A DNA stretch of 64,000 nt from an uncultured bacterium. Lineage in GTDB: Bacteria; Chloroflexota; UBA5177; JANWHV01. The notes under the pieces are model-generated. The model was not told the DNA's origin. It did no database searches and worked only from the letters and a program-made list of their open reading frames with translations. Location of the stretch: the NCBI GenBank assembly GCA_963827235.1, contig CAWHAE010000012.1:64001-128000 (forward strand). The letters are read 5' to 3'. Positions 4,772 to 25,300 of the stretch are shown here, in pieces; the stretch's first letter is position 1; the number at the start of each line of letters is the position of its first letter. The translations under genes and the position numbers were made by a program.

Positions 4772-4922
4772 ACCATCGTGGCCGGGTTCACCAGTTGCTC
4801 GCCGCAGTCCAGGGGTGGCCAGACAGGAGCAGGCGTCGGCAGGAGAGGAGCGGCCTCGCCGCTCGCGGTGCTTGAGGCGTCAGACCCTTTCTCGGGCTGC
4901 AGGTCAGCGCATCCACTTCGAC
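4772..4922 (-). ncRNA. c-di-GMP-II-like riboswitch variant with ~70-nt insertion, copy 1
   Basis: GG-A-UGC-GCU-GA-C-CUGCAGCCC...UGGCCACC..GGACUGCGG-C-GA-GCA-ACUGGUGAACCCGGCC gives the P1/P2/kink-turn/P3/pseudoknot pattern of c-di-GMP-II (RF01786); TATAAT at 4926-4931 immediately upstream. Confidence 0.7.
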
Positions 4923-5028
4923 CCGATTATAGGCCCGCATGTGCGCCCTGCCCATGAACAGCGCAGCGCACACTAGCGTGCACAGTTGCCGGAGCGACCA
5001 CGTTAGGCTCCAGACAGCGCCCGTACCA

Positions 5029-6042
5029 TCAGGAGGCGGTGGAGATGAACTGCGACGCGGCCTCCGAGCTGGGCGTCGACGTGCTGGATGGGACTCTACA
5101 AGTGCGGTCGGACGAACTGCCTGTCTCACGCCAGAGGTTGCCGTCCATCCCCAAAACGTATACGGTCGTGCTGTCCAGTGCCTGGAACCCACGGACGTTC
5201 GGGTCGACCAGTTTGCGACCAGAGTAATTGTCTGTCTCACGCCAGAGGTCGTAGTTGGTTCCCAAGACGTAGACGGTTGTGCGGTCCAACGCTTGGAACT
5301 GCCAGAGGTGCGCGTCGACCAGGGCTTCACGGGAGTGATTGCCTCTCTCACGCCAGAGCCTGTCATCGGTTCCCAAGACGTACACGGTTGCGCTATCCAG
5401 CGCCTGGAACTGCCAGACGTTGGCGTCGACTTGGGCGCGATTGGAGTAATTGCCTCTCTCACGCCAGAGTCTGGCGTCGGTTCCCAGGACGTAGACGGTC
5501 GTGCTGTCCAGCGCCTGGAACCTGGAGACGTGCGCGTCGACCAGGGTACGATGTGAGTAGCTGCCCATGTCACGCCAGAGCCTGTCATCGGTTCCCAGGA
5601 CGTAGACGATCGTGCTGTCCAGCGCCTGGAACTTGGCGACGTTCGCGTCGACCAGGGTGCGATGTGCGTCATTGCCGATCTCATGCCAGAGCTTGGCGTC
5701 GGTGCCCAGGACATAGACGGAGGTGTCGTCCAGCGCCTGGAACGTGGAGACGTTCGCGTCGACCAAGGCGCGAGACTGATTGCCTGTCGTCCGCCAAAGC
5801 TTGCCGTCGGTTCCCAGGACGTAGACGGTTGTGCCGTGCAGAGCCTGGAAGTGCTCGACGTTTGCGGCGGACTGGGTGCGATAGCCCGGGGTGCCTGAGT
5901 CGTGCCCGAGGTTACCGTTGCCGGTCAGGACGATCACCCGATGGTTCGTGAACATGCCGGCCTGCTGTGGGAGCGATGCGAGCTGACGTGACCCAAGTAT
6001 GCCGGCGCATACCAGGCCTATCAGCGCGGCAAGTACCTTCAT
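5029..6042 (-). CDS. Secreted beta-propeller (lectin/tachylectin-like) repeat protein, 7 x 37-aa repeats; 3' end cut at a junction near 5100
   Basis: Signal peptide; repeats VDANVxxFQALDxTTVYVLGTDxxLWRExGN; homology with 13050-14024 stops at ~5102. Confidence 0.8.
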   Translation of the reverse strand: MKVLAALIGLVCAGILGSRQLASLPQQAGMFTNHRVIVLTGNGNLGHDSGTPGYRTQSAANVEHFQALHGTTVYVLGTDGKLWRTTGNQSRALVDANVSTFQALDDTSVYVLGTDAKLWHEIGNDAHRTLVDANVAKFQALDSTIVYVLGTDDRLWRDMGSYSHRTLVDAHVSRFQALDSTTVYVLGTDARLWRERGNYSNRAQVDANVWQFQALDSATVYVLGTDDRLWRERGNHSREALVDAHLWQFQALDRTTVYVLGTNYDLWRETDNYSGRKLVDPNVRGFQALDSTTVYVLGMDGNLWRETGSSSDRTCRVPSSTSTPSSEAASQFISTAS

Positions 6043-6199
6043 CGGAATTCCTTTCTCGTGCTCGAACGTGATTTGTCCTTTCTCCGTACCTGCTGACCTT
6101 GCGCCGGAGTCCCCTTACCCATGTATCCCCCGTCTCCTGAGCACACAGAGCGCAGTCGCTGCTCCTCACCAAGCTGGGTCACACCCAGTGATAGCCGAC

Positions 6200-7495
6200 C
6201 TATTTCTTCGTCACGAAGCGTCGAGGCCGTCGTGCAAGGCGCTCATGAGCACGCGCGTAACTACCGTCACTCACCGAGGCGTTGAGCGATAGCTCTCCAG
6301 CCAGACAGAGTGCCGCACAGAGGTTGGCAAACATACCCGCGTTACCAGCTCCGGCAAGTCCCAGGAGCTTCAGGCATGCAAACTGGCTGGGCAACTGTGT
6401 GCCACCTCCAACAGTGCCTACCGGCACATTGGGCAGCGTCACCGATGCATAGAGATTGCCGTGCGGTGTAAGCTCCATCCGAGTGATGCCGACAGCAGCT
6501 TCCGCTACACAGGCCACGTCCTGGCCGCATGCCATGAACAGCGCTGCGAGCGCATTCGCATAGTGTCCCTCGATGCCCATGGCACCGGAGAGGCTGCTAC
6601 CGATCGCAACCAGGCGCCACAACTTCTCCATCCGCTCAGGCGAGGTATGCAACCGCTCCCGAACCAGCTCGGCGGGCAGCTCCACCTCAGCCGTGACTCG
6701 TTTGCCTCGAACCGTGCTAAATGCCTGATAGCTTGCCTTCTTATCGCCAGACAGGGTGCTCTCGAGAAAGCAGTCTTGGGGGTGAATGGGGCTGTTAGCG
6801 AGAATATAGTTGACGATCGCCGCCGTAGCTATCGTAACCATGTTTTGCCCGGCAGCATCGCCGGTCGTGAAGGCGAAGATGAGGTGGACGTGGTTACCTT
6901 CGGGGACGGCGCGCAGGTTCTCCAGCCTGCCATGATGCGTGGTACGTGCAGCCTCCTTCTGAAACTGCATGAACTGCTGTTCCAGCCAAGACTGAAAGAG
7001 CGCGCCATCGTGGAGGCTACGGAAGAAGAAGCATGGTGCGCGGAGCATGCCGTCTGCGACCACCCTGGCCCTGCACCCACCGGCCTCGGTGATCACTTGA
7101 GCACCCCGGTCTAGGGAGGCAACCAGTGCCGCCTCAGTGGTGGCGAGCGGCACCATGAAGTCCCGCCCATTGACTCGGAGAGGGCCGGCCTTGCCTAGAG
7201 GTATCCGGGCCTCCCCGATGAAGTTTTCGATGTTGGCATTGTAGAGGGTCATGCGTTCCTGCGCTGGAGCGTCCAACAAGATGTCACGTGCCGGCGCGGC
7301 TGCAGGGTGCACTGTGGCAATGTGCTGCCATAGCCGCGCGACACTTCGAGTTGTGGCAGCTGGACAGAGACGAAGCATCGGCGGGTCAGGCGCCGGCGCT
7401 AAGGGCATCAACGCGCCAAGGCCTGCATCATCAAGCGACTGGCTACAACCCGAAGATTGACACTGTTCACTTTCCCGATTTGGATTCGCGATCAT
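6200..7495 (-). CDS. hmgA: Hydroxymethylglutaryl-CoA reductase, class I
   Basis: ENFIG, PLATTEAALVAS, TGDAAGQNMV, DKK, GTVGGGT, GELS and C-terminal catalytic His motifs. Confidence 0.92.
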   Translation of the reverse strand: MIANPNRESEQCQSSGCSQSLDDAGLGALMPLAPAPDPPMLRLCPAATTRSVARLWQHIATVHPAAAPARDILLDAPAQERMTLYNANIENFIGEARIPLGKAGPLRVNGRDFMVPLATTEAALVASLDRGAQVITEAGGCRARVVADGMLRAPCFFFRSLHDGALFQSWLEQQFMQFQKEAARTTHHGRLENLRAVPEGNHVHLIFAFTTGDAAGQNMVTIATAAIVNYILANSPIHPQDCFLESTLSGDKKASYQAFSTVRGKRVTAEVELPAELVRERLHTSPERMEKLWRLVAIGSSLSGAMGIEGHYANALAALFMACGQDVACVAEAAVGITRMELTPHGNLYASVTLPNVPVGTVGGGTQLPSQFACLKLLGLAGAGNAGMFANLCAALCLAGELSLNASVSDGSYARAHERLARRPRRFVTKK

Positions 7496-7667
7496 TGGCT
7501 TCTCCCGCCTGAACAAGACGGCCAACAGGCCTCCGAGGGCAAGCGCATCCCTGAAAAGGCGCTGCGTCTGCCGAACACCGAACTCCGTGCGGAGCGGGTG
7601 ACATTGACGAGAGCATCAGCGCTACGGCGATCACCGCGGCCATCACGGGCACGAACAGGTAGACCAT
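7467..7667 (-). CDS. Small hydrophobic peptide MVYLFVPVMAAVIAVALMLSS...
   Basis: GGAG RBS and one TM-like stretch; N-terminal 30 aa conserved in the second copy (14184-14282). Confidence 0.45.
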   Translation of the reverse strand: MVYLFVPVMAAVIAVALMLSSMSPAPHGVRCSADAAPFQGCACPRRPVGRLVQAGEANDRESKSGK

Positions 7668-8006
7668 GGCTGGTATCTCCGAGCACCCGTCGAGCTATCT
7701 CACGTCTCGGTGAGCGGCGGCACATCAGCCAGGCCGTGAGATGCCGCCTACGCACCGTGCGTCGATCTGCAGGGCCCATAGTAGGTTCACCCGCGCTCAC
7801 CGGAACAGCGCAAACACTATCAAATACTGTCAATCCGGTTGGTGGAGCTCGAGGAGGGATCCAACTGACCTCCGTGCCCAGAGCGCGACAGCCCGCACCG
7901 TCTGCCCGGGACGACCTCCGGCCGGTCCTTCCTGCGGCTCAAGCCGTGCGGGAGTTGCCCGCCGCCACTCCCCAGCTGATTGGCTCCGTCAACTGCCGGG
8001 TCGCGT
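7579..8006 (-). repeat. 428-bp cassette B copy 1 (direct-repeat operator, TACTAT -10, structured leader, small hydrophobic ORF)
   Basis: Near-identical to 14194-14621, same length. Confidence 0.9.
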
Positions 8007-8163
8007 GCTCGCGTGGGTTGCAGCAGCATGCCGGATTCTCCAGTCGAGCAGAGCAGACACGCAGCCAACAGGCGCGTCGAGCAAGGGCTTTCGCCCGACG
8101 CGGGGAAGGCTCGGACCGGCGCGGTGCCAGCGCACGTCTGTGTAGCGCGGCGCTGCCCCCGGG

Positions 8164-8649
8164 TTACCGGGCAATCTGCATGGGGCGGGACTTCGGATTC
8201 AGTTCCTCCTGGCTGGGGAGCACGCCGAGCTGCTGGAACGCGCCCAACCTATCCCACAACGACCGTACTTCCACGACTTTGCCGCCGGCGAAGCGGAGAA
8301 TAGAGAATGAGGTCCAATGTACGCTCTTGCCTGTGGGGGCGAGATCCAGGAACCCAGCGCCGGCATGTGTGCCGCGGAACGTTTCGCACAGCACCGCGAT
8401 GTCGCCTTCTGCCGTCAGCTCTTCGATCGTAAACATGCCGTCGGGAAAGGCAGCGCGACCCGTTGGGAAAGCTTCTTTCATGGCCCGAGTGCCTGTCGCG
8501 GTGCCAATAGAGCTTGGAACCCGCGGGTCAGGCCACAGGGCGATCTCCTTGAAGTCGGGGGCGAAGACATCGTCGACGACATCCACGTTGCCTCGGTTGA
8601 TCTCCTCCACGAAACGGCGAATCAAAGCCTTGTTGTCTTCTGCTGACAT
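8164..8649 (-). CDS. SnoaL-like ester cyclase (NTF2-like)
   Basis: MSAEDNKALIRRFVEE, AFPDGMFTIEEL.AEGD, GTH.G, PTGKSV, D.LG..QQLG; GGAG RBS. Confidence 0.9.
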   Translation of the reverse strand: MSAEDNKALIRRFVEEINRGNVDVVDDVFAPDFKEIALWPDPRVPSSIGTATGTRAMKEAFPTGRAAFPDGMFTIEELTAEGDIAVLCETFRGTHAGAGFLDLAPTGKSVHWTSFSILRFAGGKVVEVRSLWDRLGAFQQLGVLPSQEELNPKSRPMQIAR

Positions 8650-8820
8650 CGGCTGCTCTCCCATCGTCTGGACGCTTCCGGCCATGGACAAGGCTGATAG
8701 ATCTGGTTCTTCGGCGTAATCAATGCACGAGCACCAGCAACGCGACCAGCTTCCTCGTGCTTTGCATGTCCTGCTCCTTCCTGAGCGGCGCCGGGCACAA
8801 GCAACCCGGCGCACGACCAT

Positions 8821-8971
8821 GCCATCGTGGCCGGGTTCACCAGTTGCTCGCCGCAGTCCAGGGGTGACCAGACAGGAGCAGGCGTCGGCAAGAGAGGAGC
8901 GGCCTCGCCGCCCGCGGTGCTTGTGGCGTCAGACCCTTTCTCGGGCTGCAGGTCAGCGCATCCACTACGGC
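8821..8971 (-). ncRNA. c-di-GMP-II-like riboswitch variant, copy 2
   Basis: Same 151-nt fold; P1 GCCGUAGUGG/CCACGAUGGC; TATAAT 8975-8980; followed by a 15-aa truncated ORF (8720-8767). Confidence 0.7.
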
Positions 8972-9006
8972 TCGATTATAGGGTCGCATGTGCAATCTGC
9001 CAATGA

Positions 9007-9035
9007 ACAGTAGAGCGCACAGTAGCGTGCACAGT
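9007..9035 (-). promoter_or_regulatory. Three ACAGT direct repeats at 12-bp period upstream of the cassette promoter (putative activator site)
   Basis: ACAGT at 9007, 9019, 9031; also at 25336, 25348, 25360, with variants in copies 1 and 3. Confidence 0.55.
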
Positions 9036-9078
9036 TGCCGGAGCGACCACGACAGACTCCAGGCAGCACCCGTACCAT

Positions 9079-9564
9079 CAGGAGGCGGTGGAGACGGTCC
9101 GCGACCCGGCCGGCGAGCTAAGCATCGACGTGCTTGATGGGCTGCAGTCGCTGCTGGACAAGAGCCTGCTGCGGCGGAAAGATGGACCGGGCCGGGAGCC
9201 GCGGCTGGTGCTGCTGGAGACGATACACGAGTATGCGCGGGAGAAGCTGGGGGCGAGCGGGGAGCAGGCGGCACTGCGGCACCGGCACCTCGCCTGGTGC
9301 CCAGCTCTGGCCGAAGACGCCCGGTCCGAGCTGGGCGGGCCGCGGCAGCTGGAATGGCTGGACCGGCTGGAGGTCGAGCACGACAATCTGCGGGGCGCGC
9401 TGAGCTGGGCGAAGGAGTCCGGGGCAGCTGACGAAGGGCTGCGGCTGGCGGGGGCCCTCTGGGGTTTCTGGTCTATTCGTGGCTACTTCGGCGAAGGGCG
9501 GCGCTGGTCGTGGTGCTCGTACCCGCCCCGCAATCGGATGCTGCCCGAGCGCGCGAGGCTCTGA
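9079..9564 (+). pseudogene. Internal fragment of an AfsR/COG3903-type ATPase-TPR regulator
   Basis: LDGLQSLLDKSLL, PRLVLLETIHEYAREKL, WLDRLEVEHDNLRGAL.W, RGYFGEGRRW; no N-terminus or TPR tail. A ~55-bp piece is repeated at ~5030-5092. Confidence 0.85.
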
Positions 9565-9689
9565 CGCCAGTGCTCGGTCCCGTCGCCACGACCTGTCCAG
9601 TCAACCCGGCACCGACCAGCATCGATCCGTTCTTTGGCTCGGCGATCGGGATGCGACCGGTCTTGGCGCTTGGCTTCATGCGGTGCCGG

Positions 9690-10142
9690 CTAATGCCCAG
9701 TCGTGAAGTCGATCGCGGCGCCGGCAGCATCCTCGGGGCCGTGCGCAACGGATACGACCAGCATGAATTTGGTTTGGGGATTGAGCAGCGCCAAGGGCGC
9801 TGTCGTAACGGTGAAGGTAGCCGGATCGTACATGATAGGCATAGTCATCAGGCCGGCACCGCGCTTCGAGAGCTCGTAGAGTCTCGCGTCAATCTGATCG
9901 CCGATTGGTGCAATGGATGTGGTAACGCGAATGACCAGATCGATTGGCACGCCGACTGCCCCGTCCGCAGGGACTATTCTGGTGATGCGTATCCTGCCCG
10001 GGTGCTCGTGCCCGCTGGCGTTGGAGTCTGCATTCCTGAACGCAAGGTAGCTCGCGGCGACAGGCGGATGCGAGATGCCGGCCGAAGCCATGGCACTGAG
10101 GAGAGCAAATGTGGCAAGCTGCCGGGAAAGGTGATAGCTCAT
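9690..10142 (-). CDS. Secreted protein with SbsA/Big_5-type Ig-like domain
   Basis: Signal peptide; P.DGAVGVP...I.V, YDPAT.TVT..P...L.P.T.F, FTTG; AAGGA RBS. Confidence 0.7.
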   Translation of the reverse strand: MSYHLSRQLATFALLSAMASAGISHPPVAASYLAFRNADSNASGHEHPGRIRITRIVPADGAVGVPIDLVIRVTTSIAPIGDQIDARLYELSKRGAGLMTMPIMYDPATFTVTTAPLALLNPQTKFMLVVSVAHGPEDAAGAAIDFTTGH

Positions 10143-10207
10143 CGTACATTCCTTTACGGTGTTCGCATGTCCGCGGCAACGGAGGCGTGCCCTGTCTCGC
10201 CGTGCCA

Positions 10208-12950: not shown

Positions 12951-13085
12951 ATGGAACTGCCAGACGTTCGCGTCGACCAGGGTGCGTAGCCCGAAGTGCC
13001 TGTCTCGCGCCAGTGGTTACCGGTGTGATCCAGGGCGATTATCGGATTGCTAGTAAGCATGCCGACCTGCTGTGGGAGCGATGCA
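12951..13085 (-). pseudogene. Degenerate fragment of a third propeller-repeat gene
   Basis: Reads ASLPQQVGMLTSNPIIALDHTGNHWRETGTSGY/TLVDANVWQF, homologous to the N-termini of the two propeller genes. Confidence 0.7.
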
Positions 13086-14024
13086 GCAGTCGCAGAGCGC
13101 CTGGAACCCTACGACGTCCGCGTCCACCGCGGTGCGGTCGGACGAACTGCCTGTCTCACGCCAGAGGTTGCCGTCCATCCCCAAAACATATACGGTCATG
13201 CTGCCCAGTGCCTGGAACTGCACGACGTTACGGTCAAGCAGTTTGCGATCGGAGTCATTGGCTGTCTCACGCCAGAGGTCGTAGTTGGTACCCAAGACGT
13301 AGACGGTGGTGCCGTCCAGTGCCTGGAACTGCCAGACGTTCGCGTCCACCAGGGTTTTGCGGGACTGATTGTCGATCTCACGCCAGAGCCTGTCATCGGT
13401 TCCCAGGACGTAGACGGTGGTGCCGTCCAGCACCTGGAACCTGGAGACGTTCGCGTCGACCAGGGTTTTGCAGGACTGATTGCCGATCTCACGCCAGAGC
13501 TTGCCGTCGGTTCCCAGGACGTAGACGGTGGTGCCGTCCAGCGCCTGGAACCTGGAGACGTTCGCGTCCACCAAGGTGCGATGTGCGTGGTTGCCGACCT
13601 CACGCCAGAGCTTGCCGTCGGTTCCCAAGATGTAAACGGTGGTGCCGTCCAGCGCCTGGAACCTGGAGACGTTCGCGTCCACCAGGGTGCGATGTGCGTA
13701 GTTGCCGACCTCACGCCAGAGCTTGCCGTCGGTTCCCAAGATGTAAACGGTGGTGCCGTCCAGCGCCTGGACCTGCCAGACGTTTGCGGCGAGCAGCGTG
13801 CGGAGGCCCGGAGTGCCTGAGTCGCCCCAGACATTACGGTTGCTGTCCAGGACAATCACTCGATAGTTCGTGAGTATGCCGGCGTGCTGTGGGAGCGATG
13901 CTCGCTGAACTGACCCAAGTATGCCGGCGCATACCAGGGCTACCAGCGCAGCAAGTACCTTCAGCTGAAGTGACCCAAGTATGCCGGCGCACACCAGGCC
14001 TGCCAGCGCGGCAAGTACCTTCAT
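13050..14024 (-). CDS. Secreted beta-propeller repeat protein, 6 full 37-aa repeats, tandemly duplicated signal peptide
   Basis: Paralog of 5029-6042; KVLAALxxLVCAGILGS occurs twice (60-bp tandem duplication). Confidence 0.85.
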   Translation of the reverse strand: MKVLAALAGLVCAGILGSLQLKVLAALVALVCAGILGSVQRASLPQHAGILTNYRVIVLDSNRNVWGDSGTPGLRTLLAANVWQVQALDGTTVYILGTDGKLWREVGNYAHRTLVDANVSRFQALDGTTVYILGTDGKLWREVGNHAHRTLVDANVSRFQALDGTTVYVLGTDGKLWREIGNQSCKTLVDANVSRFQVLDGTTVYVLGTDDRLWREIDNQSRKTLVDANVWQFQALDGTTVYVLGTNYDLWRETANDSDRKLLDRNVVQFQALGSMTVYVLGMDGNLWRETGSSSDRTAVDADVVGFQALCDCCIAPTAGRHAY

Positions 14025-14193: not shown

Positions 14194-14621
14194 CGAACTC
14201 CGTGCGGAGCGGGCGGCACTGACGAGAGCATCAGCGCTACGACGATCACCGCGGCCATCACGGGAACGAACAGGTAGACCATGGCTGGTATCTCGGAGCA
14301 CCCGTCGAGCTATCTCACGTCTCGGTGAGCGGCGGCACGTCAGCCAGGCCGTGAGATGCCGCCTACGCACCGTGCGTCGATCTGCAGGGCCCATAGTAGG
14401 TTCACCCGCGCTCACCGGAACAGCGCAAACACTATCAAATACTGTCAATCCGGTTGGTGGAGCTCGAGGAGGGATCCAACTGACCTCCGTGCCCAGAGCG
14501 CGACAGCCCGCACCGTCTTCCCGGGACGACCTCGAGCCGGTCCTTTCTGCGGCTCAAGCCGTGCGCGAGTTGCCCGCCGCTGTTCCCCAGTTGATTGGCG
14601 CCGTCAACTGCCGGGTCGCGT
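14194..14621 (-). repeat. 428-bp cassette B copy 2 (32-aa peptide ORF at 14184-14282)
   Basis: Near-identical to 7579-8006. Confidence 0.9.
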
Positions 14622-15045
14622 TTGCCGCGCTGCTGCGCCGCGATCTATCTGCAACTGCCCAGCCGTGTGGACGATCGAACGCGGGCCGGTTCAGTAGAAG
14701 GCTATATGTGGAAGGGGTAGCCGTGTCGTCGTCATAATTGGCCACGTAGGCGCTCTTGCCGTTCGGCGTGATGGCGAGGCCCTGAGGATCACTGCCAACG
14801 TTGATCGCCGGGCCGGCCGTGTTGGTGGCGGCACCGGCCGCTCCGCTGCTCGGCGCAGCGCATGCCACCGTCGCCGGGCCGACCAGCAACGTCGCGACGA
14901 ACACGCCCGCACCGGCGTATGGATAGGCCAGTGGCGGGACAACGCGGGGATGGTCGTTGTGCGCCCGAGCGCCAGGTGCCGGTCCCAGGGCCAGCACGGC
15001 GAGCACGACCGCCAGCAACGCGACCAGCTTTCTCGTGCTTTGCAT
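14554..15045 (-). pseudogene. Chimeric ORF: N-terminus of a third tandem paralog, a YVTN/YncE repeat shard and the cassette B edge
   Basis: MQSTRKLVALL...PPLAYPY, then INVGSDPQGLAITPNGKSAYVANYDDDT. Confidence 0.7.
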
Positions 15046-15095
15046 CTCCTGCTCCTTCCTGCGCGGCGCCGGGCAGAGCGCCAGAAACACGCTGC

Positions 15096-15788
15096 TCAGC
15101 GGCGAACGGTCAGATGGTAGGTAACTTCTCCGGCCATCAAGACGGGATGACCGAACGAAAAGCGCAGGTCGACAGTATGCCGTCCCGCTGCCAGCGGCGC
15201 GACCATGACATAGATGCCGTCAACCTCCGCCGTGGTGATCCCAGGCCCGTGCACGCCCAGCTCATTGTCGGCCGGATACGAAACGCGGAAGAGCGGAGTC
15301 TCGAACCGGTAGCGGGTGAGCAGACTCGTGAGGTGCTCCCCATCCACCGTGACATCAGCTTCTGTCGCCGTATCCATGGTCTTCTTGGCGCAGCGGCACA
15401 GCGCCTCGGATGTTACGCTGTGCGCTGACGGGTTCTCGAAGTCCCACGCGGCAGCTGGATTGATGAGGAGCGCCTTGCCGGCAGGCACCGTACAGGTCCG
15501 GACATCGGTGCCGCCAAAGTTCGAGGTGAGGTGCCAGACCGGGCCGGACTGGCCCTCCGCGCAGCGTGCCCCGGTGCGGTCCCGCGCAGGGTCCTGCGCT
15601 TTGGGTATGGCCACCCACCACTGGAAATCCCGGACGGCCCATTCGCGGTACGAGTGCCCGTAAGGGTGCGCCTGGGGCGGGTACACGCTCGGCGGTGCGC
15701 TTGCCGCCCGGGCGGCAGGCGCGGGTCCCAGGGCGAGGATGGCGAGCACGACCGCCAACAACGCGACCAGCTTCCTTGAGCTTTGCAT
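15096..15788 (-). CDS. Secreted hypothetical protein (tandem paralog 2)
   Basis: Signal peptide; PYGHSYREW..W, C..GQSGPVW.L, RTCTVPAGKALL, DG.YVM.APLAAGRH; AAGGAG RBS. Confidence 0.85.
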   Translation of the reverse strand: MQSSRKLVALLAVVLAILALGPAPAARAASAPPSVYPPQAHPYGHSYREWAVRDFQWWVAIPKAQDPARDRTGARCAEGQSGPVWHLTSNFGGTDVRTCTVPAGKALLINPAAAWDFENPSAHSVTSEALCRCAKKTMDTATEADVTVDGEHLTSLLTRYRFETPLFRVSYPADNELGVHGPGITTAEVDGIYVMVAPLAAGRHTVDLRFSFGHPVLMAGEVTYHLTVRR

Positions 15789-15838
15789 GTCCTTCTCCTT
15801 GCTGCGCGCCGCCGGGCACAGCGCCGGAAACACGCTGC

Positions 15839-16525
15839 TCAGCGGCGAACGGTCAGATGGTAGGTAACTTCTCCAGCCATCGAGACGGGATGGCCGAACG
15901 AAAAGCGCAGGTCAACAGTATGCCGTCCCGCTGCCAGCGGAGCGAGGATGACCAGGGTGCCGTCGGCCACCGCCTTGGTGGTCCCTGGCCCAGGCACGCC
16001 CATAGAGTTGTCGCCAGGATACGCAAGCGTGAACAGGGGGGTCTGGAACCGGTAGCGCGTGAGCAGGTTCGTGAGGTGCACCCCATCCACGTTCACGTCA
16101 TCTTCTGTCACCGCATCCATACCGCTCTTGACGCAGCTACGCAGTGCCGCGAAGGTGGTGCCGCATTGCCCGGGCGAAGCTTCCACGAGGGCCGGCGAGA
16201 TGAGGAGCGCCTTGCCGGGGGGCACCGTGCAGGTCCGGATATCGGCGCCGCCCTCGTTCGACATGACGTACCAGACCGGGCCGGACTGGCCTACGGCGCA
16301 GTGCGCACCGGTGTGGTCCAACGTGGGGTTCTCCGGTCTCGGCGCACCCAACCACCACTGGACGTCCCGGACGAGCCATTCGCTGTACGAGTGGCCGTAA
16401 GGGTGCGACTGCGGCGGGAACACGTGAATCTGTGTGCTTCCCGCCCGAGCGGCAGGCGCCGGTCCCAGGGCGAGGATGGCGAGCACGACCACCAGCAACG
16501 CGACCAGCTTCCTCGTGCTGTGCAT
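15839..16525 (-). CDS. Secreted hypothetical protein (tandem paralog 1)
   Basis: Same family; directly downstream of riboswitch copy 3. Confidence 0.85.
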   Translation of the reverse strand: MHSTRKLVALLVVVLAILALGPAPAARAGSTQIHVFPPQSHPYGHSYSEWLVRDVQWWLGAPRPENPTLDHTGAHCAVGQSGPVWYVMSNEGGADIRTCTVPPGKALLISPALVEASPGQCGTTFAALRSCVKSGMDAVTEDDVNVDGVHLTNLLTRYRFQTPLFTLAYPGDNSMGVPGPGTTKAVADGTLVILAPLAAGRHTVDLRFSFGHPVSMAGEVTYHLTVRR

Positions 16526-16578
16526 GTCCTTCTCCTTCCTGCGCGGCGCCTGGCACAAGCAACCCGGCGCTCGACCAT

Positions 16579-16729
16579 GCCGTCGTGGCCGGATTCACCA
16601 GTTGCTCGCTGCAGTCCAGGGGTGACCAGACAAGAGCAGGCGTCGGCAAGAGAGGAGCGGTTTCGCCGCTCGCGGTGCTTGAGGCGTCGAACCCTTTCTA
16701 GGGCTGCAGGTCAGCGCATCCACTTCGAC
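16579..16729 (-). ncRNA. c-di-GMP-II-like riboswitch variant, copy 3
   Basis: Same 151-nt fold; P3 3' strand GGACUGCAG; TATAAT 16733-16738. Confidence 0.7.
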
Positions 16730-16824
16730 CCGATTATATGCCCGAATGTACGCCCTGCCATGAACAGCCAATCGCACAGTAGCGTGCACAGTTGCCGGAG
16801 CAACCACGACAGACTCCAGGCAGC

Positions 16825-19245: not shown

Positions 19246-19268
19246 TGTGCGCCAGCCAATCCTGCCTA

Positions 19269-21245
19269 CTAGCCACGGTCCTTGACGACCTCGTCGCCTA
19301 ACAGGCCGATTTGCACGCTAAAGCGAGGATCACGGACCTCCGGGTGCCACTCCAATCGAGCATTGGTGAAGTACTGCATGCGATAGGTCCGCCCGCTGCC
19401 GTCCATGTTCTGCGCGCTGAACTCCTCGCTGATCGGCGCGCCGAACACCTCCCTCCCACCATGCTGCCGCCAGAATCGCAGGAAGTCGCCGCGCAGCGTG
19501 TGATGGCTCTGCGGGAAGTACATCGCCGCACCGCCTGAGCCGACGGGTGACGTCGCCGTCCTTGGGCAGCGCAGGGCGCAAGAGTCCGCGCCCAGCGCAG
19601 CGATCACCGCGCCGCCCTTGCCGCCGGGTTGGACCAGCTCGAGTCGCTCGAAGTCTTGCACCAGATCACCATTCCGCCAGTAGGCCTCGTCGATCGGGTA
19701 GCCGATGCGGGATAGGCCGAGGCTGCGATCGAGTGGCACGAAGGCTGGCGCCAGGCTGTGTCGGGTCGCGGCAACATAGACAGCGCCGGGAGCGTGGCTC
19801 GCCGCCGCATGGGTGGGAAGCGTGCCGGCGAAGGCCTCCTGCCAGTGCAGGCCACCGTCCGCGCTGCGGTAGATCAGCCCCGGCGCCTTGGGGTCGACGT
19901 TGCCGAGTACGAATAGCGGGTCGCCGGCGTGCGGACCTGCGGCCAGGGCACGGATAGCCAGGGGCGGCAGCGGCAGGTCATCGCTGACGGCCAGGCGCGG
20001 CCCCGCCGGTCCGGTGCCGCGGAACGCATGGATGCCGTCGGCGTACAGGCCATATGATTGGCCGGCGCCCAGCGTGTTGGCGATCACGGCCGAGGGACAG
20101 GTACCTCGCAGGACGCCCGGGCAGACGAGCTGCCGCCAGGTGGCCCCGCCGTCCGTGGTGCTGTAGAGGCGGTCGGCGGGGAGACCGGACCCCGGCGTCG
20201 GGTAGAGCAGCAGCTGACCCGGCAGGCGGGAGTCCGAGCCAATCCGGACCTTGGCGGTCTGGAGGCCGGACGGCAAGGTCACGCGACGCCACACGGTGCC
20301 GTCGTCGGTGCTCCAGGCCTCGAAGGACGGCACGTCCTGGTGCTGATTATTGATCGTGGCGTAGAGCCGGCCCGCTACGGTGACATCGGGGATGAAGGCG
20401 GCTATCCCCGCATCGTCTGGACTCCAGGACTGCGGTGCGAGGTCCGTAGGGCTGGCGATCTCCGTCCAGGTCTTGCCGAAGTCGGTGGAGCGCTGCAGCT
20501 CGGCGCCTCCATTATCGTCCCAGGCATAGGTCTTGCCGTCGGACAGGGGACTGACCGCCAGGACCTGATGGCCATAGTCTTCGCTCTCCGCCGTACTCCC
20601 GTCGGGATTGTCTGGTTCGGACCAGTGTGCGCCCCCATCGGATGAGGTGACGATGCCCTGGTTGAAATTGTCGGGGTCGTTCACTGCATACTGCTCGTTG
20701 ATGTACAGGTGCGCGCCATCGATGGCCACGAGCGGCGCCGACCAGTCAAAGCCCGTGGGCGCGCCGGCAGGCATCACGAGGCCGTCGGGAAAAGGCAGCG
20801 ACGCCCACGTCGCCCCGCCGTCCGCGCTGCGGAAGGCCCAGGCGACCGGAACGAGGACATGCGAGGAATCCAGCACCGTGGCGAGCACGGCACCAGGATT
20901 CTGAGGCGCCACCGCGAGCGTATCGGCAGTCACGACAGTACCCTGACAACACAGGCTGGAGGCGCGATCTTGGGCGAGCCAGGTAGCGCCGCCGTCTGCC
21001 GTGTGCAGGATCGTGCCGGCATCACCCACGGCCCAGCCGTGCTGCCTGTCGGGAAAGGTCACGGCATTGAGGTTGGCGCTACCGGCGGGCACGAGCATCC
21101 TCGGAGAACTCTCTCGCAATGCCAGTCCGGCCCGGGCGCCGGCCCCGTCTGTCATGGTCGGCACACAGACGAGCAGCAACGCCACAACGGCGCCTGCCGC
21201 GATCGTTCGATGCAACGCCACTGTAGACTTGCGTAGTGCTGCCAC
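19269..21245 (-). CDS. Secreted BNR/sortilin-like propeller protein with Chloroflexi-type C-terminal surface repeat
   Basis: Multiple S.DGG.TW Asp-boxes; YFPQSHHTLRGDFLRFWRQHGG..VFGAPISEEF, QYF..ARLEWHP, LGLLG-like end. Confidence 0.85.
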   Translation of the reverse strand: MAALRKSTVALHRTIAAGAVVALLLVCVPTMTDGAGARAGLALRESSPRMLVPAGSANLNAVTFPDRQHGWAVGDAGTILHTADGGATWLAQDRASSLCCQGTVVTADTLAVAPQNPGAVLATVLDSSHVLVPVAWAFRSADGGATWASLPFPDGLVMPAGAPTGFDWSAPLVAIDGAHLYINEQYAVNDPDNFNQGIVTSSDGGAHWSEPDNPDGSTAESEDYGHQVLAVSPLSDGKTYAWDDNGGAELQRSTDFGKTWTEIASPTDLAPQSWSPDDAGIAAFIPDVTVAGRLYATINNQHQDVPSFEAWSTDDGTVWRRVTLPSGLQTAKVRIGSDSRLPGQLLLYPTPGSGLPADRLYSTTDGGATWRQLVCPGVLRGTCPSAVIANTLGAGQSYGLYADGIHAFRGTGPAGPRLAVSDDLPLPPLAIRALAAGPHAGDPLFVLGNVDPKAPGLIYRSADGGLHWQEAFAGTLPTHAAASHAPGAVYVAATRHSLAPAFVPLDRSLGLSRIGYPIDEAYWRNGDLVQDFERLELVQPGGKGGAVIAALGADSCALRCPRTATSPVGSGGAAMYFPQSHHTLRGDFLRFWRQHGGREVFGAPISEEFSAQNMDGSGRTYRMQYFTNARLEWHPEVRDPRFSVQIGLLGDEVVKDRG

Positions 21246-21608
21246 TGGTGGCTCACCCCTGTGCCCCCTTCTTTGCCTTCTACACGCCTACACGCCGGCC
21301 CTCTGGGCGTGCCCGCTTTCGTGTCCGCTACTCCCGACTGCGAGTTTGGCCAGGCATACGGCCGCCAACCCGCAGCAGCTTCGACGCGAGAACCACTGCC
21401 GTCGTGCCAGGTTGCGGTATGCGTCCACTGGTGCATCGTCTGCCAGAGCGCAGGTGGACGCCGTGCCGGCCACTGCGGTGCCTGGCTGCCGTAACGCTCT
21501 GCAGAGTCCGGATAATCCTCGGCGGTTGTCCCACCCAGCGATGTGCTCCGCGCGGAGGCATGTCACCGCTGACCTCCAGCACGTGGACTACCGAGCGCAC
21601 ACGGCGCG

Positions 21609-23063
21609 TCAGGCCGCATCGGGCACACGCGGGTCGACGAACAGGCTCACTGCCGCTTGGGTTGCCAGCCCAGCCTCGATTCTCGCGCTGTCCGTCGAGG
21701 TCGCATACCGCCGCGCCAGGTTGGTGAAGGTGCTGAAGTACGGGTACACCGACACGCCGTAGGTGAACGCCAACCCGCGCACGGTGATCGCGCTGCCGCG
21801 CACGATGTAGACGCGATGGTGATAGCTCGCCACCAGCACCACGACCTGGGCCTGGCCGTAGTCGCCTGAGCGGAAGGCGACCGTCACGCCGGGCGCGGCG
21901 GCAATCGTGTACGGCACGCCGTTGAGCTGTCCCGATTGATACCCAATCACGCCGAGCGCGTTGCCCACGGCAGCAATCTGGCCGCTGGCGAGTGCTCGCA
22001 TGGCGGCGTCCGAGAGCATAGGATCGCTGCTCGCCTGCTCAGCCACACTTACCTGGGCATTCTGGTCAGCCGACTGGAACACGCGAGCGGTCCCCGACCC
22101 GGCGACGGCAGACCACTGCGCCGGGTACCACACGGTAGACCCAGCCGCCGGATCGACCAGCCGGGCGAAGCCATCCACGTTCACGGCCGGAGCTGCGTAG
22201 CCGTCGTCGGGTGCCTGCGCTTGGATGGTCACGCTCGAGAAGACCTGCAGCAGCAACGCCCCCTCACTCGCCGCAGCGCAGTTCTTGTCGAAGAAGGTCA
22301 GGCCGTTGTCGGTGGACTGAGGACATGGGTTGCCGCGCAAAGCATCGACCGGCCGCAGGGAGGAAGGCGACATGATGACACGCGCCGGCAACGCTGCTGC
22401 CGGACCAATGTCGTTCACCGGCATGGTGTGTGACGCTGCACGGCCAAGCAGACCCAGTATGGCGTCCGGCGTGGGGGTCGGGGAGAGTCCGGCCGGCGGC
22501 GTGTGCGCGATCGCGATATACACCAGGCTGGCAAAGACAAAGAGCCGATGGTTGCGCTGGGTCACCGCCACGGTGAGCGAGCTGAACGTCGGGATGCTGC
22601 CGCCGACCAGCAGCACGGTGTCGACCTGAAAGGGGAGCCCGTTGACCACCACGCGCTTGGTCTGGCCGTACTCGCTGGCCGGCAGGTCCTTCTTATAGAT
22701 GAGGAGGGGTGTCCCATGTTCCTGGGCGATCAGCCGCGCGGCGACACCTTGCAGCTCACTGTCCGAGAACACCTTCGACCCCGTGGGTGCCACCATCACC
22801 CCGAGCGCTGCTTGATGGTCGGGCGTCATGATCGTGATGTCGGCAGCAGGGCCGTTTGGCGTCCACCGGACGCCTGGAATGCGCTGCAGCTGCTGCGGAA
22901 TCAGCAGCGCATAGCCGTGGACCGTACTGGCGTAGCGCACATCGCCGCTCGCTGCCCGCACCGGCCCGGGAGATGGGAGCAGCACAGCAAGCGGACTTAC
23001 AGCGATCGCGAGCAGCGCCGCAGCCCAGACAAGCCAACGCAGACGACGGGGATCAGCGTGCAT
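21609..23063 (-). CDS. Secreted hypothetical protein (two loosely similar domains)
   Basis: Signal peptide; GGAGG RBS; long ORF with coding-like codon usage. Confidence 0.75.
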   Translation of the reverse strand: MHADPRRLRWLVWAAALLAIAVSPLAVLLPSPGPVRAASGDVRYASTVHGYALLIPQQLQRIPGVRWTPNGPAADITIMTPDHQAALGVMVAPTGSKVFSDSELQGVAARLIAQEHGTPLLIYKKDLPASEYGQTKRVVVNGLPFQVDTVLLVGGSIPTFSSLTVAVTQRNHRLFVFASLVYIAIAHTPPAGLSPTPTPDAILGLLGRAASHTMPVNDIGPAAALPARVIMSPSSLRPVDALRGNPCPQSTDNGLTFFDKNCAAASEGALLLQVFSSVTIQAQAPDDGYAAPAVNVDGFARLVDPAAGSTVWYPAQWSAVAGSGTARVFQSADQNAQVSVAEQASSDPMLSDAAMRALASGQIAAVGNALGVIGYQSGQLNGVPYTIAAAPGVTVAFRSGDYGQAQVVVLVASYHHRVYIVRGSAITVRGLAFTYGVSVYPYFSTFTNLARRYATSTDSARIEAGLATQAAVSLFVDPRVPDAA

Positions 23064-23487
23064 CGTTCCTCCCTCTGCCGCGCTCTTCGGCACCAGGCGC
23101 GACCATCACCACCGGCAATCAACCGCGTTTCCGGACCCGGGTCTTGGCACTATCATACTACCGGCCTCATGCGGTGATCACGCCTGGGCACGCACACCGA
23201 CTCGCGCATCCAGAGCAGCCGGCTGTGTGCTGCGGACTCGGGTCATCACCGGTATTCGCGGTGGCGTCAACGCTACGAGGTGCGCAGCTGCCGCTCGTTC
23301 CCGTCAGTGCTCCGTCAGCCCGCATCCGCACGGTCTCTGGGTCGAACGGATCCATAGAAAAGGAAATGCCGGTCTGCACGCCGATCACGTCTCCGATCGC
23401 TCCGCCATCGATCAAGGGCACGAACGCGTATGCCGCGGACCTCTCGCCCGTCCTCCGTGGCGGACGTGCGCACGGGCATGAGTGCCT

Positions 23488-23520
23488 GTTCACAGATCGT
23501 TTGCAAATCGTTCACAGGTC
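23488..23520 (+). promoter_or_regulatory. Three 11-bp direct repeats GTTCACAGATC/GTTTGCAAATC/GTTCACAGGTC (winged-helix regulator-type site)
   Basis: Exact 11-bp periodicity ~95 bp upstream of the gene at 23614. Confidence 0.55.
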
Positions 23521-23613
23521 ATCACGCTGCGGTTATGGCACGGTAATCAGCCACCACTACGATGTCGGCAGTGCATCAGATCCGGTGCGCACAGGTCGAA
23601 AGGAACGAGGACA

Positions 23614-24186
23614 ATGAAGCGAGGCACTGCCAGGCGCGTGTTTCTTGGGGTAGTTCTGACCACCGCGGTGGCCGTGGCCGCGTCCACTGCCGTGAGCAAC
23701 CCGGTTCCTGCCGCGCATGCCGGCAGCGGCTGCAGCGGGCTGCTCCAGGGCTTGCAGTCGTGGGTGGAAACCCCGGGACAGGACATGAGCACCAACGTTG
23801 CTGACTTTGAGCTCGTCTCCAGCCGGGGGGACAACCACTACGCGTCCTACACCACGGGCAGTCTGTCGCTTGATGGAAACGCGTTGACCACCGCCTACCT
23901 GCCGTTCGGTGCAACGAGCGGCACGCAGTATTTCAGCGACCGCGCCTACAGGAGTAGCAATGGGTGGCAACCCTTCGAGGCCCAGGCAACCGACCGGCTA
24001 GGCGTCTCGATCAATACCGCTACCGGCGCCACCACGCTGACGCTCCTCAGCTGGGGCAACGGGAAGGTGCGAATCCCGACCATGCAGTGCAGCGATGGCG
24101 TGATGTACGGGTTCAGCTCCGATACGACGCACTCCCTGTATGCCTTCAGCTTCTCCGAGGGCAACGTACCGCAGGAACCCAAGTAG
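23614..24186 (+). CDS. Secreted hypothetical protein
   Basis: MKRGTARRVFLG signal peptide (AHA cleavage); GAGG RBS. Confidence 0.75.
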   Translation: MKRGTARRVFLGVVLTTAVAVAASTAVSNPVPAAHAGSGCSGLLQGLQSWVETPGQDMSTNVADFELVSSRGDNHYASYTTGSLSLDGNALTTAYLPFGATSGTQYFSDRAYRSSNGWQPFEAQATDRLGVSINTATGATTLTLLSWGNGKVRIPTMQCSDGVMYGFSSDTTHSLYAFSFSEGNVPQEPK

Positions 24187-24353
24187 CCTCTGGGGGACGA
24201 GGGCATCTTGGTGAGCAACCCTCGCCTGGTCGAGGCACGCTGATTCCCATCCACGAGAGTTCACGGGAGGGCCGCGCCGCCGACATGCAGCGCGGCCTCG
24301 CCGTCGATGCCGGCTGCGCCGACAGGCATTGCCACGTTGGTACCGGCGGCGGC

Positions 24354-25092
24354 GATCAGGGCGGTATCGCGGTAGGCGAGTGCATGGAAATGGAAGGCCG
24401 CTGTGCGCGCAACGACCCTCTGGCGAACCCGCCCGAGCGGCAGATCAGCCTCGTTCGGCGCGCACGCGAGGGGCGCATGTGTGCACCCTCCGCGACGAGT
24501 AATTGGCGCGAATGGCGTGAGCGGCAGCACCGTCGAGGACGACCCCGCCGACGCCCTGGTCTCCGCGGAGGCGATTCTACAGCTTGTACCCGATCATGCG
24601 CAGGAAGTCTTTGCGTTGCACCTTGGCCGCTTCGTCCTCGATGCCCAACGGCGACTGACCGTCTATCACGCCCACAATGCCCCGCCCTTGTTCGGTCTCT
24701 GCCACGATGACCTGGAGCGGGTTGGCCGTCGCGCAGAAGATACGGCACACCTCGGGCACGTTCTTGACGGCATTCAGCACGTTAATCGGGAAGGCATTCC
24801 CCAGGAAGATGATAAACGCGTGCCCCGCGCCGATCGCTTGAGCCGTCCTCTCAGCCAAGCCAGTCAGCTCTGCATCAGTGCCGGCTGACCGCACGAGCCG
24901 CGGGCCGGATGCCTCGCAGAAAGCCAGGCCGAACTTGATCCCAGGCACACTGTTGACCACTGCCTCAAAGACATCTTCGATGGTTTTGATGAAGTTGCTT
25001 TGCCCGAGGATGAGATTGAGGTCCGGGTCAGGTCTTTCGATAGGGACAAGAGAGAGCTGGACAGGCATATGACCTCCGAAAGCTGTGGCAAT
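24354..25092. repeat. 739-bp duplicate of 35723-36461
   Basis: Same length; no differences seen in the stretches compared; ORF translations within the repeat are identical. Confidence 0.95.
24577..25068 (-). CDS. COG1839 / adenosine-specific kinase family protein, copy 1
   Basis: NLILGQSNFIKT.ED, FGLAFCEASG, IGAGH, FPINVLN..K.VPEVC.IFCATANP, RG..GVIDG, LR.IGYKL. Confidence 0.92.
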   Translation of the reverse strand: MPVQLSLVPIERPDPDLNLILGQSNFIKTIEDVFEAVVNSVPGIKFGLAFCEASGPRLVRSAGTDAELTGLAERTAQAIGAGHAFIIFLGNAFPINVLNAVKNVPEVCRIFCATANPLQVIVAETEQGRGIVGVIDGQSPLGIEDEAAKVQRKDFLRMIGYKL

Positions 25093-25149
25093 GCATGTCC
25101 TTCTCCTTCCTGCGCGGCGCCGGGCACAAGCAACCCGGCGCACGACACT

Positions 25150-25300
25150 GCCGTCGTGGCAGAGTTCACCAGTTGCTCGCTGCAGTCCAACGGTGACCAG
25201 ACAAGAGCGGGCGTCGGCAAGAGAGGAGCGGTTTCGCCGCTCGCGGTTCTTGAGGCGTCGGAGCCTTTCTCGGGCTGCAGGTCAGCGCATCCACTACGGC
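25150..25300 (-). ncRNA. c-di-GMP-II-like riboswitch variant, copy 4
   Basis: Same 151-nt fold; P1 GCCGUAGUGG/CCACGACGGC; TATAAT 25304-25309; pocket strand GGUGAACUCUGCC. Confidence 0.65.

Follow-up and report, generated by a model that had tools for sequence, protein, structure and literature searches.

The c-di-GMP-II riboswitch aptamer (RF01786) is built of P1, an unpaired A, P2, a kink-turn, P3, and a pseudoknot between a UGGNCAC loop and a GGUG...CCG strand. In the structure 3Q3Z, G-alpha of the ligand bonds A69, and G-beta bonds both G73 and the A70 ribose, while A70 itself only intercalates. A70 is a conserved capital in the RF01786 consensus (GUGCAACCGg, in agreement with the canonical pocket given in the initial annotation of this locus), so that losing it may have larger consequences than a purely stacking role implies. 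Two pocket variants are catalogued in Rfam, GAG (RF03169) and GCG (RF03170). Read as pocket strings, which we inferred from the consensus sequences, they are GAGACCG (G69, A70) and GAGCCCG (G69, C70, with a loop C pairing with G73), respectively. No reported ligand for either variant was found in the literature searched. An engineered derivative of c-di-GMP-II-Bh, BhP1-5delC, binds 2'3'- and 3'3'-cGAMP (PMC13715770); the fold and the A, A and G pocket residues are kept, but the dinucleotide preference is changed. BhP1-5delC carries an engineered P1 deletion and no insert, whereas the copies described here carry a natural change at the intercalating base.

Four long-form elements of the c-di-GMP-II clan

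Four elements of 153 nt each, with boundaries set by cmscan, lie on the minus strand of the window, which is the whole stretch of 64,000 nucleotides that was analysed (Table 1). They were found where the initial annotation had placed them, each with a TATAAT 3-4 nt upstream. All four match model positions 1-86 or 1-85 in the Rfam clan CL00127 with significant E-values (1.6e-4 to 8e-3 against the clan models in a 20.8-kb search), and the best family was RF03169 for copies 1-3 and RF03170 for copy 4, at 34-39 bits. These matches establish the family relationship: the four elements belong to a branch of the c-di-GMP-II (GEMM-II) clan that bears the insert and is specific to this lineage.

The matches are visible in an Rfam search by E-value, while a search at gathering thresholds gave no match in the window. 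An insertion of about 71 nt in the P3 loop keeps the copies slightly below the gathering scores. On RF03169, with a gathering score of 40, all four window copies stay below the cut-off (Table 1), which is passed by four other copies in the genome (40.0-43.4 bits). The best score in the genome was 38.6 bits on RF03170 (cut-off 47.9) and 20 bits on RF01786 (cut-off 53.5), with long-form copies at 19.6 bits or less on the latter. A model of the compact form (R1) aligned the long forms wrongly and matched them only in part, at 21-39 bits, so a MAFFT alignment (A4) and R2, a covariance model built here for the long forms, were used instead.

Table 1. Positions of the four elements and their associated features in the window.
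Feature	Position	Strand	Evidence
Copy 1 aptamer (c-di-GMP-II clan, long form)	4771..4923	-	RF03169 34.0 bits, E 5.7e-05 (401-nt search); R2 172.2 bits
Copy 2 aptamer	8820..8972	-	RF03169 39.0 bits; R2 173.6 bits
Copy 3 aptamer, U at position 70	16578..16730	-	RF03169 37.4 bits; R2 179.9 bits
Copy 4 aptamer, probably degenerate (C71U, G73U)	25149..25301	-	RF03170 34.5 bits; RF03169 23.1 bits
Insert of copy 1 (~71 nt)	4822..4893	-	P3 loop, from P3 5' strand to pseudoknot loop strand; cmscan [71]
Pocket strand of copy 1	4783..4788	-	A68 4788, A69 4787, C70 4786, C71, C72, G73 4783
Position 70, other copies	8835 (C), 16593 (U), 25164 (C)	-	Sequence
Promoter-like site of copy 1 (TGGGCA, 17 nt, TATAAT)	4926..4954	-	10/12 positions match
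Promoter-like site of copy 2 (TTGGCA, 17 nt, TATAAT)	8975..9003	-	11/12 positions match
Terminator-like hairpin, copy 1	4753..4788	-	Minimum-free-energy fold; U-rich tail 4744-4752
Terminator-like hairpin, copy 2	8803..8837	-	Minimum-free-energy fold
Terminator-like hairpin, copy 3	16561..16595	-	Minimum-free-energy fold
Shine-Dalgarno GGAAGGAG and ATG of copy 1 gene	4715..4731	-	Sequence
Copy 1 gene, paralog of 228-aa signal-peptide family	4035..4717	-	Homology split over three reading frames
15-codon remnant of signal-peptide ORF behind copy 2	8720..8767	-	Sequence
Genes behind copy 2	5029..8649	-	ORF list; Pfam
SnoaL-like gene behind copy 2	8164-8649	-	PF07366, 1.2e-26
HMG-CoA reductase gene behind copy 2	6200-7525	-	PF00368, 6.3e-108
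Gene for protein with 37-aa repeats behind copy 2	5029-6042	-	ORF
Two tandem paralogs behind copy 3 (15096..16525)	15839-16525, 15096-15788	-	~228 aa each, signal peptide
Third paralog behind copy 3, truncated	14914-15045	-	tblastn
Gene behind copy 4, PF04008 'adenosine specific kinase'	24577..25068	-	Pfam 2.3e-73

The insert of copy 1 contains a hairpin, GAGCGG/CCGCUC at 4848-4864, and the insert hairpin shows compensatory changes among the paralogs (alignment columns 60-64 with 75-79). Run on sets of 20 and 40 long forms, RNAalifold recovered one hairpin in the insert and no further structure. The genome holds 18 long-form copies in total, and the 40 long-form copies that were collected consist of 27 in three genomes and 13 on metagenome contigs. 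We found the long form in this genus and, beyond it, on 15 of 16 metagenome contigs only, and relatives lacking the insert are frequent in the same class. Of four genome matches in one exact-motif scan, three fell in DNA that looks AT-rich or protein-coding and lacks a surrounding aptamer, and 24 of 43 matches in a second scan had no R1 match above 29 bits.

Five insert-free A-A-C relatives carrying the GGUGAACCCG strand were taken as natural stand-ins for copies freed of the insert. Three of them scored 60-63 bits on RF03170; the best Rfam family was GCG for three, canonical for one, and GAG for one. This result shows, for the five tested, that the three clan models of Rfam divide one homogeneous A-A-C group among themselves.

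Conservation of the fold

P2 (UGC/GCA), the GA/GA kink-turn, P3 (CUGCAG.CC/GG.CUGC(G/A)G) and the pseudoknot strands (UGG(U/C)CACC with GGUG) are present in the window elements, so that, together with P1, they share the complete RF01786 fold, and every structural element named in the initial annotation was recovered. In an alignment of 64 sequences, 83.5% of cells were paired in the fold including the pseudoknot, compared with 28-42% when the partners were slid. Compensatory changes were observed at 23 of 29 pairs, and the pseudoknot was 92% paired with three covarying pairs. The G-A pairs of the kink-turn were invariant in 20 of 20 copies. Covariation among homologs, on which the initial annotation had made its assignment depend, is thus present, and pairing is kept through compensatory changes.

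Downstream genes

The gene behind copy 1 is broken: ungapped tblastn gave six segments in frames -3, -2, -1, -2, -3 and -2 with 62-86% identity. Behind copy 3, the three paralogs showed tblastn identities of 100%, 67%, and 66%. The ~228-aa proteins encoded there had no Pfam match, and a protein atlas gave hypothetical proteins only. A search for related loci with the 228-aa protein found no relatives, and the same search with HMG-CoA reductase matched many phyla and was therefore uninformative on taxonomy. Copies 2 and 4 are cassettes that carry ORF remnants and stand ahead of unrelated genes; in copy 4, the remnant of the cassette ORF lies upstream of the gene. Most of the downstream genes encode proteins that start with a predicted signal peptide and are probably secreted, which is also the case for the neighbouring canonical RF01786 copies.

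Pocket strand, position 70, and the ligand

Pocket residues were numbered by alignment to the RF01786 consensus and by the contact list of 3Q3Z. The pocket strings are GUGAACCCGG in copies 1 and 2, GUGAAUCCGG in copy 3, and GUGAACUCUG in copy 4, as the initial annotation wrote them. A69 is present in all four window copies and G73 in three, copy 4 being the exception, while A70 is present in none, so that no window copy has the full A69, A70 and G73 set of RF01786. The loop UGG and A61 match those of RF01786 and 3Q3Z. A takes the place of C68 of RF01786, which turns the pair that closes the pseudoknot into U-A or a C.A mismatch; the loop base opposite position 68 is C, U or A, and its pairing is not constrained.

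The copies resemble GCG in A68 and C70, the latter in three of four, but all four have A69 and the loop U of the canonical class in place of the G69 and loop C of RF03170. They also differ from GAG: where RF03169 has GAGACCG, the window reads GAACCCG, GAAUCCG and GAACUCU (GAA(C/U)CCG in copies 1-3), and both mismatched pocket columns are blank in the cmscan match line.

All four bases occur at position 70 among close paralogs. The count was C10, A5, U2 and G1 in the 18 copies of the genome, and C20, A16, U3 and G1 in the 40 long-form copies. The remaining columns of the pocket strand were each conserved in at least 18 of 20 copies, including A69 (20/20) and G73 (19/20). A pyrimidine at position 70 thus holds for every window copy, but not as a fixed rewiring.

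The ligand is most likely still c-di-GMP, because the two residues that read the ligand bases are retained and variation is confined to the stacking residue 70. The signalling context agrees with this, as the genome has 27 GGDEF and 13 EAL matches. A different reading is that the A68-A69-(C/U)70 pocket senses another signalling nucleotide such as 3'3'-cGAMP, c-di-AMP, pGpG or some other dinucleotide. We consider this doubtful, although several observations agree with it. Position 70 lacks the A that RF01786 conserves there, and in the compact insert-free elements C70 is nearly fixed (AAC in 27 of 44), as expected of a selected change of specificity. Most A-A-C types also have a correlated change two bases past P2 (AC, not AG), and some compact copies stand ahead of genes for the NiFe-hydrogenase small subunit, an unusual target of c-di-GMP. 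The sister variants GAG and GCG are reportedly suspected of sensing other signals. The fold also changes its specificity readily, as BhP1-5delC recognises cGAMP isomers through an unaltered set of pocket residues. Some genomes (G001, G012 and G018) have canonical aptamers alongside A-A-C ones, and the genome under study already holds six class-I c-di-GMP riboswitches, which together leave room for a second signal.

Against this stand the unchanged A69 and G73 and the behaviour of position 70 among close paralogs ahead of one gene family: a single ~229-aa family lies downstream of U70 (L006), G70 (L010) and C70 (L011, L137, L044) copies. SnoaL-like genes likewise lie behind copies with different bases, C70 here and A70 in the genome G002. 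In the divergent long forms A70 is the commonest base (9 of 13 metagenome copies and both copies in G002), canonical and A-A-C aptamers have similar targets, mostly signal-peptide proteins, and a SMODS-type cyclase was not found in the genome, which is 95.9% complete. Given how freely this one pocket base changes between related copies, a new ligand is less likely than c-di-GMP. The variant class proposed in the initial annotation stands as a set of c-di-GMP-II-type aptamers, but pocket variants had already been catalogued, and an altered ligand or affinity is weakened to a minority reading, with A69 and G73 kept in three of the four window copies and position 70 variable.

Taken more broadly, it seems rather unlikely that the C70, U70 and G70 copies either have another dinucleotide, cyclic or linear, as their ligand or manage to bind c-di-GMP although the adenine that normally intercalates is missing. 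The latter could occur by a one-base register shift, in which the invariant A68-A69 would replace A69-A70 and position 70 would be flipped out. If the ligand is c-di-GMP, the variation at position 70 may tune affinity.

Promoters, terminators, and a possible mechanism

Copies 1 and 2 also have a -35-like hexamer spaced 17 nt from the TATAAT; a promoter scan gave two sites of this kind (Table 1), compared with 0.6 +/- 0.9 in shuffles. The predicted folds of copies 1-3 contain a terminator-like stem whose 5' half runs from A68 through the pocket strand to the P1 3' strand, an arrangement of shared nucleotides consistent with a transcriptional riboswitch. This stem was 96.6% paired in 27 long copies, compared with 28-41% in slid controls, and position 70 covaried with its 3' half (CG 16, AU 7, UG 2, other 2; n=27). 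A70 copies are trailed by U runs such as UUUUUUU. The U-tracts in the window are weak (GUUUCUUGU, GUUGCUUGU), and a simple terminator scan did not flag the terminators of the window copies. Copy 4 had no terminator in its minimum-free-energy fold.

Contigs covering 4740-4911 were found in three metatranscriptome runs of one study. In two runs they were less than 90% alike, with 23 differences, and in the third a shorter piece was 90-95% alike. These contigs are too divergent to come from this locus and derive from a related copy in another organism. As they cannot show RNA ends or prove transcription, they are neutral on the window locus.

We think it somewhat probable, judging from the sequence, that the elements are transcriptional ON switches, most likely still sensing c-di-GMP, ahead of mostly signal-peptide-bearing proteins. 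Each copy would be transcribed from its own sigma-70-like promoter, and the pocket strand A68-A69-N70-C-C-G73 together with the P1 3' strand would double as the 5' half of the terminator stem. Ligand, presumably c-di-GMP with affinity perhaps tuned at position 70, would lock P1 and the pseudoknot, block the terminator, and let the gene be read; the ON direction is suggested by this layout. Copy 4 has neither G73 nor the terminator any longer, and it is probably either constitutive or in decay.

The state of copy 4, which lacks G73, C71 and the terminator fold, also agrees with the view that the elements are ligand-independent leaders, that is, decaying or co-opted aptamers serving as structured 5' UTRs, as attenuators, or for protein binding through the insert. 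The broken gene of copy 1, the remnant-bearing cassettes of copies 2 and 4, and conserved GACGCC repeats within the insert point the same way. However, the core strands are almost invariant in the 40 long copies, in which P1, P3 and the pseudoknot pair through changes, and terminator pairing is kept by compensatory change at position 70. An almost invariant core with compensated stems argues for purifying selection on the switch, and ligand-independent leaders are a quite improbable account of the elements.

Implications

The four elements are members of a catalogued group of RNA switches, c-di-GMP-II, and what is new is an insert-bearing structural variant, whose long form with the 71-nt insert is missed by standard Rfam annotation. 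For the organism, they are part of a regulon of 18 leaders, mostly ahead of proteins that bear signal peptides and have no known function. The paralogs are nearly identical apart from position 70, where A, C, U and G all occur, and this natural series is a ready-made experiment on the role of that base in affinity or specificity. If binding of a different dinucleotide, or of c-di-GMP without A70, were true, the copies would be a natural allelic series at a key stacking position and would also add a 71-nt peripheral domain, new to a riboswitch fold whose structure is solved.

Family assignment and copy number

A scan of the window against Rfam at gathering thresholds gave no match. With E-value thresholds, scores were obtained for all four elements: copies 1-3 reached 34.0, 39.0 and 37.4 bits with RF03169 (c-di-GMP-II-GAG; gathering score 40) and copy 4 reached 34.5 bits with RF03170 (c-di-GMP-II-GCG; gathering score 47.9), each alignment spanning the whole model with an insertion of 71-79 nt in the P3 loop. 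The cmsearch proposed in the initial annotation thus matched every copy with the variant models, below their gathering scores, whereas the canonical RF01786 did not exceed 20 bits at any place in the whole genome of the window (G000).

G000 was searched whole (8.0 Mb, 21 contigs). RF03169 found 13 true copies, four of them at or above the cut-off; a further match, L014, showed no similarity in the alignment and was discarded as not a true copy. A covariance model of the long form, the aptamer with an insert of about 71 nt in the P3 loop, had also been proposed; once built (R2), it found 18 copies in G000 at 93-180 bits.

Conservation of the fold

Reading the window sequence bore out the positions first assigned to the four elements. 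To count the pairs of P1, P2, P3 and the pseudoknot, 20 long and 44 compact (insert-free) elements were aligned together, 64 in all. In this alignment 83.5% of the cells were paired, compared with 28-42% when the partners were slid, the covariation score was 0.453 versus 0.08-0.16, and changes on both sides were found in 23 of the 29 pairs. A shuffle control overstates significance because the sequences are related, which makes sliding the fairer comparison. In the pseudoknot, pairing reached 92% and three pairs covaried (CACC/GGUG, CGCC/GGCG and CACU/AGUG), and the kink-turn G-A dinucleotides were invariant in the 20 long copies. From the pairing counts and the invariant kink-turn, we concluded that the c-di-GMP-II architecture had been described correctly.

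Distribution among relatives

RF03169 detected clan members in 20 of 41 related genomes, in a collection where the class is represented by only 21 genomes, and nearly all of these elements were compact (82-104 nt). In a clan competition among the Rfam models on 20 loci, RF01786 was the top model for compact elements with GGUGCAACCG (57-61 bits) and RF03170 for those with GGCGAGCCCG; those with the strand of the window, GGUGAACCCG, were split among RF03170 (three, 60-63 bits), RF01786 (one, 54.5 bits) and RF03169 (one, 50.7 bits). Positions 68-70, in the canonical numbering, read AAC in 27, CAA in 8, UAA in 4, AGC in 2, and AAA, GAC and ACA in one each of 44 compact elements, including L015 and L059 from the unpublished genome G018, two loci on which no statement rests.

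Among genomes, the long form was found only in the genus of the window, with 18 copies in G000, 7 in G001 (all RF03169 matches of 150-154 nt) and 3 in G002, one of them degenerate. The R2 search found none in the other 149 genomes of a 151-genome phylum sample. Exact-motif scans gave one extra long form, on a record titled Chloroflexota MAG. Of 16 metagenome contigs from these scans, 15 also carried a long form: 14 of these were complete, two being identical, and one was truncated at its 5' end. An 18-mer of the compact A-A-C type had 43 matches, of which 17, on 15 loci, were true elements, scoring at least 70 bits with the compact-form covariance model R1. By title, 13 of these loci were Chloroflexi, Chloroflexota or Chloroflexia and two were Proteobacteria.

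The ligand pocket and position 70

In the 3Q3Z structure of c-di-GMP-II, A69 takes three hydrogen bonds from G-alpha, G73 and the A70 ribose are bonded by G-beta, and A70 is intercalated between the ligand bases (PMC13715770). An excerpt of a review lists A13, A14, U37, G39, U60, A61 and C68-A74 as contacting nucleotides. Relative to the RF01786 consensus, A13, the loop UGG, A61 and A69 are retained in the window copies, as is G73 except in copy 4, and the changes are A at position 68 and C or U at position 70. Compared with the GAG and GCG consensus, names whose meaning we infer from the consensus strings, the window copies have A instead of G at position 69 and U instead of C at the loop base opposite G73. 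Judged by these two differences, the pocket of the window resembles the canonical pocket more than that of the GAG or GCG variant.

Weinberg et al. (PNAS, 2017) reportedly suggested that variants of c-di-GMP-I and -II may respond to other signalling molecules of bacteria. The initial annotation had suggested a different ligand for the window copies on the ground that A70 is replaced by a pyrimidine. The pyrimidine is present in the window copies; across the long forms, however, this position is polymorphic. In A1, an alignment of 20 long copies, all columns between the kink-turn and P1 on the 3' strand were conserved in at least 18 copies except position 70, which was C in 13, A in 4, U in 2 and G in one. 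Over 40 long forms the counts were C 20, A 16, U 3 and G 1 (G000, C 10, A 5, U 2, G 1; G001, C 7 and no other base; G002, A 2 and no other base; metagenome contigs, C 3, A 9, U 1, no G), tallies that are inflated by recent duplication, the copies not being independent events. The more divergent long forms mostly have A70, giving GGUGAAACCGG, a pocket strand also found in L024, a compact element that clears the RF01786 threshold with 58.5 bits. The same gene family of about 228-229 aa lies downstream of U70 (window copy 3), G70 (L010) and C70 (L011, L137, L044), and where a SnoaL-like gene is downstream, the leader is C70 in the window and A70 in G002; therefore, the regulon is not partitioned by the base at position 70. 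A different ligand is possible but not favoured.

A predicted terminator overlapping the pocket

In copies 1-3, the A68-G74 strand and the 3' strand of P1 pair with a downstream segment in a hairpin of 13-14 bp, followed by a U-rich run. This stem was 96.6% paired in 27 long copies, compared with 28-41% in slid controls. Position 70 and its terminator partner were C-G in 16 of the 27, A-U in 7, U-G in 2 and other combinations in 2, the compensating U being present in all seven A70 copies. U-runs were clear downstream of A70 copies and weaker in the window copies, whose hairpins were not flagged by a simple terminator scan. Compact A-A-C relatives have the same design, in which AACCCGAUCC pairs with GGAUCGGGUU ahead of U-runs. 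Because the 5' half of the terminator is the ligand pocket and P1, termination should be prevented by ligand, and we infer that the leaders are ON switches.

Past the terminator and ahead of the Shine-Dalgarno sequence, a second strong hairpin reuses the 3' half of the terminator and encloses the U-tract. The Shine-Dalgarno sequence (GGAAGGAG), invariant among the cassette copies, is partly complementary to the pyrimidine-rich tract CUCCUCUCCU, which could be an anti-SD element.

Duplication of the cassette and state of the copies

TATAAT lies 3-4 nt ahead of each of the four elements, with -35-like hexamers at 17-nt spacing in copy 1 (10 of 12 positions matching) and copy 2 (11 of 12). The promoter scan gave two such -35/TATAAT sites versus 0.6 +/- 0.9 expected. 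Similarity between copies exceeds 151 nt: it begins about 100 nt upstream of TATAAT and reaches into the initial codons of a signal-peptide ORF. A cassette of promoter, leader and ORF start has therefore been duplicated. A conserved block that precedes the -35 region, and which contains a direct repeat of ACTGTGC (CAACTGTGCACGCTACTGTGCG), may be an operator.

The aptamers of copies 1-3 are intact. The gene behind copy 1 shows homology in six segments over three reading frames, yet a 265-aa ORF is open; either it is a pseudogene or the assembly contains indels. Copy 2 retains 15 codons of the cassette ORF ahead of a SnoaL-like/HMG-CoA reductase operon, and copy 3 (U70) is followed by two complete tandem paralogs. 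Copy 4 has C71U and G73U, a weakened pseudoknot and no terminator fold; it is probably a relic, leaving the PF04008 gene unregulated. At copies 2 and 4 the promoter-riboswitch cassette apparently recombined onto these unrelated genes.

Two paralogous genes of the window each contain five tandem repeats of 111 nt (37 aa), and Pfam gave no confident family for either.

Features of the window and of three related loci
Feature	Position	Strand	Remark
Copies 1-4	4771-4923, 8820-8972, 16578-16730, 25149-25301	-	
Gene behind copy 1	4035-4717	-	paralog of the signal-peptide family of about 228-229 aa
Remnants of cassette signal-peptide ORF	8720-8767 (copy 2), about 25085-25097 (copy 4)	-	
Conserved block preceding -35 region	4955-5020, 9004-9050, 16745-16800, 25325-25380	-	common to six copies in the genome
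Predicted terminator of copy 1	4753-4788	-	U-rich tail at 4744-4752
Second hairpin, GCGCCGGG/CCCGGCGC	4737-4760 and equivalent sites in copies 2-4	-	
Pyrimidine-rich tract	4841-4850 and equivalent sites	-	directly 3' of insert hairpin
111-nt repeat arrays	5103-5846, 13133-13876	-	within genes 5029-6042, 13050-14024
Direct-repeat pair D7	24354-24653, 35723-36022		at least 300 nt, 100% identity
Direct-repeat pair D8	7579-7878, 14194-14493		at least 300 nt, 98% identity
1325-aa ORF	71-4048	+	many WD40-like repeat units of 129-132 nt (families D4, D6)
NiFe-hydrogenase small-subunit gene behind compact element	L021:1650-2669, L036:1694-2056, L066:1376-2395		PF14720/PF01058 for L021

Downstream genes and signalling context

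For most of the 18 G000 leaders, the downstream ORF has an N-terminal signal peptide or membrane segment. The family of about 228-229 aa, which has no known domain, lies behind five leaders, with tandem paralogs; other targets include a lactonase-like beta-propeller, a beta-helix protein, an AhpC/TSA-type redoxin, a family-5 solute-binding protein, a patatin-like lipase, the SnoaL-like gene with HMG-CoA reductase, and the PF04008 gene. In related genomes, elements with the canonical pocket likewise lie ahead of genes for signal-peptide proteins, most of which have no Pfam family.

The compact elements in front of NiFe-hydrogenase genes, in three related genomes, have AAC or GAC at positions 68-70; the small subunit is an unusual target for the c-di-GMP-II clan.

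G000 has 27 GGDEF and 13 EAL matches; no SMODS cyclase was found in this genome (95.9% completeness). Six class-I c-di-GMP riboswitches are also present (RF01051, 39.7-69.8 bits; contigs C19, C16 and C12).

We concluded that the elements are real, regulatory and members of a catalogued clan. What is new is the form with the 71-nt insert, overlooked by annotation, the A68-A69-N70 pocket, to which no consensus string of the three Rfam models corresponds, and the expansion to 18 copies.
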